Sequence record: PP596835.1
From: Escherichia phage Dru_SM1
Length of the DNA: 60,633 bases
Reading direction: 5' to 3' (one strand)
The notes beneath the pieces are model-generated. The model saw only the letters and a program-made list of their open reading frames with translations. It did not search any database and was not told where the DNA came from. The translations under genes and the position numbers were made by a program. Below are positions 46,513 through 46,790 of this stretch, one piece after another (within the stretch, counting starts at the first letter, position 1; every line of letters begins with the position of its first letter).

Positions 46513-46737
46513 ATGGTCATGCTGAATAAAGTATATAGCACAATGGGCGCGGATTATAAAGTTGTACGTCACCCTCGTACTGGCAAATTTGAAGCATATA
46601 TCCGTCCAATGGGTGAAGGTTGGATGTATTACGGTACTTATGACGACGCTGAGCAAGCTTATAAAGAGGCGGAAAGTGCAGCGGAAGCATCCGAAATTAT
46701 GGCAAGGTACGACGTCGATGATTATTACCTTAGCTAA
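46513..46737 (+). CDS. hypothetical small protein encoded opposite to the surrounding leftward genes
   Basis: 74-aa ORF with GGAGG RBS; followed by a hairpin terminator. Confidence 0.45.
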   Translation: MVMLNKVYSTMGADYKVVRHPRTGKFEAYIRPMGEGWMYYGTYDDAEQAYKEAESAAEASEIMARYDVDDYYLS

Positions 46738-46741
46738 CAAT

Positions 46742-46760
46742 AAAGGGCCTTTCGGCCCTT
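46742..46760. terminator. bidirectional terminator hairpin between convergent small gene and primase gene
   Basis: GGGCC-TTTC-GGCCC stem-loop with A-run upstream and a T-rich repeat downstream. Confidence 0.5.
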
Positions 46761-46790
46761 TATTTATTTATTTATTTATTTATTTATTTA
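46759..46790. repeat. tetranucleotide microsatellite (TTTA)x7
   Basis: seven perfect TTTA units directly after the hairpin, abutting the primase stop codon. Confidence 0.8.

Follow-up and report, generated by a model that had tools for sequence, protein, structure and literature searches.

The window analyzed here is the whole 60,633-nucleotide (nt) stretch of Escherichia phage Dru_SM1 (PP596835.1). Its plus strand carries ORF65 (46513 to 46737), which runs for 74 codons from an ATG at 46513 to a TAA stop codon at 46735 to 46737 and is preceded by a GGAGG ribosome-binding site (RBS) 8 nt 5′ of the ATG (46500 to 46504), a site annotated as an RBS in phage Seurat. The initial annotation of this stretch had described a 74-amino-acid (aa) rightward frame with a GGAGG RBS, and both elements are confirmed. 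Upstream lies a divergent intergenic region; downstream, a hairpin and an array of TTTA units separate ORF65 from the 3′ end of the essential DNA primase/helicase gene, which is read leftward (ORF66; 46788 to 49124, minus strand; 778 aa from an ATG at 49124, identified by its ORF, domains, and primer mapping).

The phage is the ΦDruSM1 of Ojima et al. (bioRxiv 10.1101/2024.04.14.589459), whose preprint, in its searchable text, describes an ORF-by-ORF deletion library of this 60-kb Queuovirinae phage. All 22 ΦDruSM1 primer segments from their supplement match the window exactly and at consistent positions (46.2 to 53.2 kb), and the four published sizes of wild-type check amplicons (535, 340, 335, and 1,487 bp) all equal the corresponding distances in the window. 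The window is therefore ΦDruSM1 wherever the two were compared. The 535-bp amplicon spans positions 46388 to 46922, with the repeat array inside it. The ORF65 deletion primers map to 46496 to 46515 joined to 46714 to 46748, fusing position 46515 to 46714, and the 74-aa gene is thus the published ORF65, the same gene in the same genome as in the preprint and in the EVADES catalogue. ORF72 (KfrA_N-like, anti-BREX) was also considered as the identity of the 74-aa gene and was ruled out, as its primers place it at ∼52.0 to 52.6 kb. By BLAST, the region matches 35 GenBank phages, nearly all of them Seuratvirus (Queuovirinae) coliphages, and none is identical.

Structural genes are read rightward to ∼24 kb, a leftward block occupies roughly 26.1 to 50.7 kb, and genes are again read rightward after ∼54.7 kb. 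ORF65 therefore opposes a leftward block of ∼25 kb, as had been noted initially. This block comprises more than one transcription unit, with a fresh leftward unit beginning at 46354 (a 24-aa ORF and then ORF64), so that ORF65 has a divergent promoter region on one side and a convergent terminator on the other. A 500-bp stretch (46269 to 46769) forms a conserved island with 95 to 98% identity among Seuratviruses, and its flanks are more mosaic.

ORF65 and its neighborhood

According to the searchable text of the preprint, deletion of ORF65 is viable, lowers the EOP on hhe hosts by 10^-3 with smaller plaques, and weakens escape from Druantia type I, less than deletion of ORF71 does. The supplement of the EVADES anti-defense catalogue, as far as it is accessible, enters orf65 as counteracting HheA. 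All 26 full-length ORF65 alleles encode exactly 74 aa, and among them the variable sites fall 9/3/20 by codon position, with a pN/pS of 0.11. ORF65 is under purifying selection, and this together with the published deletion phenotypes establishes the small frame as a genuine, functional gene. It belongs to phrog_22269 (E = 1e-53), to which PHROG assigns no function. The family is narrow, comprising four clusters at 90% identity in a set of 5.8 billion proteins, and an exhaustive profile search added only a few proteins of 66 to 74 aa.

Several other genes of the phage bear on this locus. ORF71 encodes Druad1, a 44-aa anti-Druantia protein (MFTLEIKYFGSDWEVEDVFNNRYDAEQTGKFMLSQGLITNWRVL; 51818 to 51952, minus strand) known from the published gene and located by primer mapping; among six sister phages, the searchable preprint text (Ojima et al., bioRxiv 10.1101/2024.04.14.589459) reports it in ΦDruSM1 only. 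Two free-standing homing endonucleases were recognized by HNH_3 domain matches, ORF61 (44447 to 45007, minus strand) and ORF67 (49126 to 49650, minus strand), the latter with a recognizable AP2 module. The two HNH-AP2 endonuclease genes flank the replication genes and lie less than 3 kb from ORF65, and the gene at 49126 to 49650 runs with its 3′ end into the start of the primase gene. The same text reports that ORF61 could not be deleted and that ORF67 could. In the PH_ORF65 region of Ojima et al., we also observed a perfect 9-nt tandem repeat (45145 to 45172; ACATCGTTC, 3.1 copies; Tandem Repeats Finder [TRF] score, 56); their PH_ORF65 deletion primer reads 'catcgttcacatcgttcacatcgttc'.

The leftward unit opens with a 24-aa hydrophobic ORF (MFEPLKLFAGAIFVAGYFWFMYIL; 46280 to 46354, minus strand; strong RBS, GGAGGGG), followed on the same strand by the 85-aa ORF64, which starts at 46271 and whose RBS is overlapped by the stop codon of the 24-aa ORF. 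This small ORF is annotated only in Cronobacter phage CSP1 and is not in the ΦDruSM1 ORF list; it is conserved even in the copy carried by the Felixounavirus SPJ41 (MFELLKLF...). The 158-bp divergent intergenic region (46355 to 46512), which presumably holds promoters for both directions, is at least 90% conserved in 29 relatives. Reading hexamers by eye, we found a candidate leftward promoter with the −10 element TATACT (46386 to 46381) and a candidate rightward promoter, TTTACC and TACTAT separated by 17 nt (∼46455 to 46483), each matching 8 of 12 consensus positions. A sigma-70 consensus scan of positions 45900 to 47000 found no site at the 9/12 threshold. Rfam gave no match between 45500 and 47500 at a permissive E value, so the conserved intergenic region contains no known RNA family.

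Primer mapping places PH_ORF69 of Ojima et al., a 93-nt ORF (46400 to 46492, plus strand), inside this intergenic region. In the searchable preprint text, its deletion (removing 46403 to 46468) has the same phenotype as the ORF65 deletion, 'Druantia type1, hhe'. It is more likely that this deletion removes the ORF65 promoter or leader than that it acts through loss of a 30-aa protein.

The stretch from 46261 to 46532 is 92% identical to part of two Salmonella Felixounavirus myophages, SPJ41 (vB_SalM_SPJ41, 2500 to 3197) and SWJM-02. The similarity takes in the 24-aa ORF and the divergent intergenic region as well as the RBS and first 17 nt of ORF65. In SPJ41 and SWJM-02, a 127-aa gene stands behind the promoter region, and ORF65 is truncated after six codons beside an HNH-AP2 endonuclease. 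Judged from these alignments, this looks like a promoter cassette exchanged between phage families, perhaps linked to homing.

ORF65 as a predicted AP2-type domain

In Pfam, ORF65 gives a weak AP2 match: residues 17 to 59 match positions 6 to 50 of the 54-position model (PF00847) with an E value of 0.003 and a score of 18.1 bits, below the gathering threshold of 33.3 bits. Profile searches gave stronger matches. Searched against 1.84 billion representative sequences, the ORF65 family profile matched long multi-AP2 proteins (E = 2e-17 to 1e-10), the matched repeats of which are themselves Pfam AP2 domains (E = 1e-23 to 1e-64). Among PDB sequences, it matched the second AP2 domain of Arabidopsis WRI1 over residues 14 to 71 (E = 3.9e-6), followed by ERF096 and AtERF1 (E ∼0.04). 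The AlphaFold2 model of ORF65 (pLDDT, 76) has four β-strands and then one helix, the antiparallel β-sheet packed on one α-helix that defines the AP2 fold, and the sequence carries the AP2/ERF-like pattern Y-K-V-V-R ... T-G-K-F-E-A-Y-I-R ... Y-G-T-Y-D-x-A-E-x-A-Y. Within its 74 aa, Pfam found no HNH domain, and in the same search the neighboring HNH_3 proteins matched with an E value of 5e-21. Sequence and model together identify ORF65 as a predicted stand-alone AP2-type DNA-binding domain with an acidic, aromatic tail.

The predicted β-sheet-plus-helix fold is one that ORF65 would share both with AP2/ERF proteins and with the AP2 modules of phage HNH homing endonucleases. It differs from these in standing alone, at 74 aa, without a nuclease domain and with a score under the Pfam threshold, and in its reported role, which is defense evasion rather than homing or plant-type transcription control. 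We considered whether ORF65 is a recent remnant of the phage's own HNH-AP2 endonucleases and rejected this origin because the proteins are too distant (hhalign E = 0.01 to 0.04; 37 to 39% identity over ∼35 columns); one comparison with these modules gives 39% identity over 33 columns at an E value of 0.01. In the searchable preprint text (bioRxiv 10.1101/2024.04.14.589459), ORF65 carries the HHpred label of a SplA transcriptional regulator and not of an AP2 protein, and AP2 is not mentioned for ORF65 there or in the accessible EVADES text and supplements. The AP2 assignment is thus new relative to the searchable literature.

Three of the 11 copies of ATAGCAC in the genome fall within 222 bp around the ORF65 promoter (46320 to 46541), all on the plus strand, and a variant, ATAGCAG, lies at 46385. 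The cluster is weak, with a rough, after-the-fact chance probability of ∼0.01. These copies could be candidate operator sites for the putative AP2 protein. A search for operator-like repeats showed that the intergenic region has no 13-mers in common with the remainder of the genome.

ORF65 is dispensable for growth, but full plating on hosts with the hhe and Druantia type I defenses depends on it. We propose that it acts at the DNA level, either regulating other phage genes as a small sequence-specific protein or serving as a DNA-bound shield. An alternative is that ORF65 inhibits HheA directly or serves as its decoy, using the AP2-like fold to bind protein and not DNA. The EVADES supplement, in its accessible part, presents orf65 as an anti-defense protein against this single-protein defense. 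Direct binding is common among small anti-defense proteins, and acidic, aromatic C-terminal tails such as that of ORF65 (DVDDYYLS) recall protein-interaction tails. However, without ORF65 the phage also escapes Druantia I, an unrelated system, less well, and since its loss affects two unrelated systems, a dedicated one-protein inhibitor is less likely. The sequence and predicted fold moreover point to a DNA-binding family, the HHpred label in the searchable preprint text is that of a transcriptional regulator, and ORF65 is kept in all Seuratviruses regardless of the defenses that they encounter. We therefore regard direct inhibition as possible but less probable than action at the DNA level.

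A hairpin between convergent stop codons

A hairpin (46739 to 46764) starts one base past the ORF65 stop codon. Its 5-bp, all-GC core, GGGCC-TTTC-GGCCC (46745 to 46758), extends to an 11-bp stem (AATAAAGGGCC / GGCCCTTTATT), with a folding energy of −16.4 kcal/mol on the plus strand (z = −3.0) and −20.6 kcal/mol in the minus-strand context (z = −3.5). The hairpin that the initial annotation placed at the end of the ORF is therefore present. It is followed by the tail UUUAUUUAUUU on the plus strand (T-score, 4.18) and by UUUAUUGUU on the minus strand (T-score, 3.58); the terminator scan, which takes the longest stem, reported the plus strand only. By paired stem length, the hairpin is among the two strongest terminator-like sites between 36 and 56 kb. 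The convergent stop codons of ORF65 (46735 to 46737, plus strand) and the primase gene (46790 to 46788, minus strand) flank it, and the depositors of Seurat, SA80RD, and SA126VB annotated the same site as a terminator on both strands.

From its sequence and folding, we interpret the hairpin as a bidirectional intrinsic terminator shared by ORF65 and the primase gene. It resembles known terminators of this kind in being a GC-rich palindrome with a tetraloop, flanked by an A-tract and a T-tract and located between convergent stop codons. It differs from the terminators at the same site in relatives in that the T-tract of ΦDruSM1 is 35 nt long instead of 11 and consists of a perfect tetranucleotide array that holds the neighboring gene's stop codon.

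Across the related loci L001 to L033, the tetraloop (46750 to 46753) occurs both ways round, as GAAA/TTTC and AAAT/ATTT, with a single GTTT. The orientation determines which of the convergent transcripts bears a GNRA (GAAA) tetraloop, in this phage the primase transcript. Since the loop is found flipped among isolates, the palindrome appears prone to template switching, which may have inverted the loop repeatedly; recombination would be another explanation of the pattern. The primase 3′ end (46788 to 47300) in turn falls into two classes among Seuratviruses, ...KDLSK* (GCTTAAG...) and ...EE* (CCTCTTC...). Both loop orientations are present in both classes, and in both the primase stop codon TAA lies within the TTTA tract. 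The point at which the classes switch falls exactly at the T-tail, which marks the terminator as a recombination (mosaic) boundary.

A private expansion of the TTTA tract

The array that follows the hairpin (46759 to 46793) is (TTTA)8 plus TTT, or 8.75 copies (TRF score, 70), and not the seven units first counted. It would serve both as the T-tail of the rightward terminator and as a 3′-untranslated spacer in the primase mRNA. It is the sole period-4 array in the window, and runs of even five units arose in none of 100 dinucleotide-preserving shuffles. The extended stem ends on the first T of the array. The array does adjoin the primase stop codon, as reported initially, but does more than abut it, since the stop codon TAA (46788 to 46790) and the last codon, AAA (Lys; 46791 to 46793), both lie within the array.

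For the repeat census, we compared 33 related genomes, consisting of 27 GenBank/IMG/VR genomes and 6 Logan contigs; as IMG/VR held only three related loci, the census leaned on GenBank phage records and Logan contigs. The relatives carry (TTTA)2 followed by TT or TTT, the one exception being SLUR25, in which a G>A substitution creates a third unit. The comparison of repeat length across isolates that the initial annotation had proposed as a check on its slippage idea thus gave near invariance. Three loci (L029 to L031) have an identical ORF65 protein, the same TTTC loop, and 96 to 98% identical flanks, yet carry (TTTA)2. Each of the other full-length BLAST matches is 24 bp shorter than the query, and a scan of IMG/VR and JGI metagenomes for the hairpin with at least three units plus TTT returned no matches. 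Because the relatives all carry (TTTA)2, two units are the ancestral state and ΦDruSM1 alone gained six units (24 bp). By this census, the array of ΦDruSM1 is a private lengthening of a (TTTA)2 tail that otherwise does not vary, and the locus is not hypervariable among isolates. The earlier proposal that tetranucleotide slippage changes the length of the array thus holds for ΦDruSM1 (eight units versus two), for which slippage is the most likely source of the six-unit gain, but not as variability, which was absent across the 33 relatives.

An expanded allele unique among 34 genomes could be an assembly or sequencing artifact or a mutation that became fixed in one stock as it was passaged in the laboratory, either way lacking a natural counterpart. 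The reference of Ojima et al. also has the expanded array, as the 535-bp amplicon spans the repeat and their primase-deletion primer runs through at least four AAAT units. The agreement in amplicon size is probably not independent of the window, as that size was probably computed from the same assembly. Even so, a 35-nt perfect repeat is easily covered by single short reads, making misassembly unlikely, the flanks of the array are collinear with those of the relatives to the base, and at least four units were included in the primer design. We consider such an origin very improbable and treat the expansion as a genuine allele.

The effects that copy number could have are few. Whatever the number of units, the primase gene reads AAA-TAA in the first one that it enters, and the ORF65 frame closes ahead of the hairpin, so neither coding sequence depends on copy number. 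In RNAfold, the terminator hairpin and its energy stay the same from 2 to 12 units; the rightward 15-nt T-tail scores 4.18 with eight units and 4.06 with two, and the leftward tail scores 3.58 either way. Hairpin energy and T-scores being independent of copy number, the usual determinants of termination are unaffected, and the suggestion that repeat length modulates termination efficiency finds no support through them. The sole parameter altered is how far the primase stop codon lies from the hairpin (GGGCC), 5 nt with two units and 29 nt with eight.

This distance covers a range known to matter elsewhere. At lambda tR2, termination is almost abolished when the translated stop codon is 8 to 9 bp away and reaches ∼0.9 beyond 30 bp, and Li et al. 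suggest that stop-terminator spacing tunes antisense RNA and makes bidirectional terminators asymmetric (PMC4824070). By analogy, leftward transcripts might terminate more strongly beyond the primase gene as a result of the expansion, with less antisense transcription over ORF65, an effect to which we give little credence. Such a mechanism would work by ribosome occlusion and in the leftward direction, opposite to the direction implied originally. Taken further, the expansion could be an adaptive cis change that keeps the ribosome off the hairpin, raises leftward termination, reduces interference over ORF65, and so yields more anti-defense protein. Spacing is indeed the single parameter that the expansion changes, and, in the searchable preprint text, ΦDruSM1 is the only one of six sister phages that kills Druantia I hosts, with a contribution from ORF65. 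Yet that text credits the escape mainly to Druad1 (ORF71), the gene found only in ΦDruSM1. Moreover, a spacing of 5 nt serves all 33 relatives well, how distance affects termination depends on the sequence (PMC4824070), and one observation cannot show selection. We find adaptation by this route doubtful. Most likely, the expansion is neutral or nearly so, with the caveat that the phage carrying it is alone among the six in escaping Druantia I and that it lies beside a gene that contributes to the escape.

Tetranucleotide repeats in Haemophilus and Neisseria genes are known as phase-variable contingency loci. The ΦDruSM1 array resembles these in being a perfect tetranucleotide array able to slip: it has at least eight perfect units, long enough for slippage, and its length was altered at least once in this lineage. 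If it were a contingency locus, its length would fluctuate within populations and switch expression. Unlike the bacterial loci, however, the array is noncoding, lying outside both coding sequences, and changes in unit number cannot shift a frame, as translation of the primase stops in the first unit. Nor does it occupy a promoter spacer (−35/−10), and the hairpin and nearby U-tract are constant across copy numbers. Length polymorphism is absent among the 33 relatives, other expanded alleles are absent from IMG/VR and JGI metagenomes, and the published reference assembly and the window both have eight units, judging by the 535-bp amplicon. A contingency locus is therefore extremely unlikely. 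A broader idea, that the microsatellite tunes a bidirectional terminator in a lytic phage and so provides heritable, reversible, slippage-driven control of counter-defense expression, seems to us quite improbable as well; if it were true, template switching at the palindrome would drive both the change in repeat number and the loop flips.

With a near-neutral expansion as the preferred reading, the observations can be assembled into one model. A compact rightward single-gene unit would sit between two leftward units of a Seuratvirus coliphage, with a promoter in the 158-bp divergent region, at a position suggested by the candidate hexamers, and the GGAGG RBS driving ORF65. ORF65 and the essential primase gene converge on one putative terminator, A-tract/GGGCC-N4-GGCCC/T-tract, which would stop either transcript from running antisense into the opposite gene and from which both stop codons are normally only 1 to 5 nt away. 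The T-tract on the primase side gained its six units (24 bp), most likely by replication slippage at the palindrome, outside both coding sequences and with the hairpin and nearby U-tracts unchanged. We hold this model as a whole, a rightward single-gene unit with an AP2-type ORF65, a shared terminator, and a near-neutral private expansion, to be probable.

Both the gene and the terminator belong to known kinds and have for the most part been described, and the ORF65 knockout phenotype has been published in the same phage. The preprint, in its searchable text, calls ORF65 SplA-like and says nothing of the terminator or the repeat. New here are the AP2 assignment, the demonstration that the expansion is private, and a spacing mechanism by which it could matter. 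The analysis ties an opposite-strand ORF to an experimentally studied gene with anti-hhe activity and a contribution to anti-Druantia I activity. The census makes the microsatellite a private allele, removing the idea of phase variation, and the two- and eight-unit alleles pose a narrow question about stop-to-terminator spacing in a natural convergent gene pair. For ORF65 itself, the AP2 assignment offers a testable biochemical identity, that of a predicted small sequence-specific DNA binder, which would suit its effect on two defense systems better than a one-target inhibitor.
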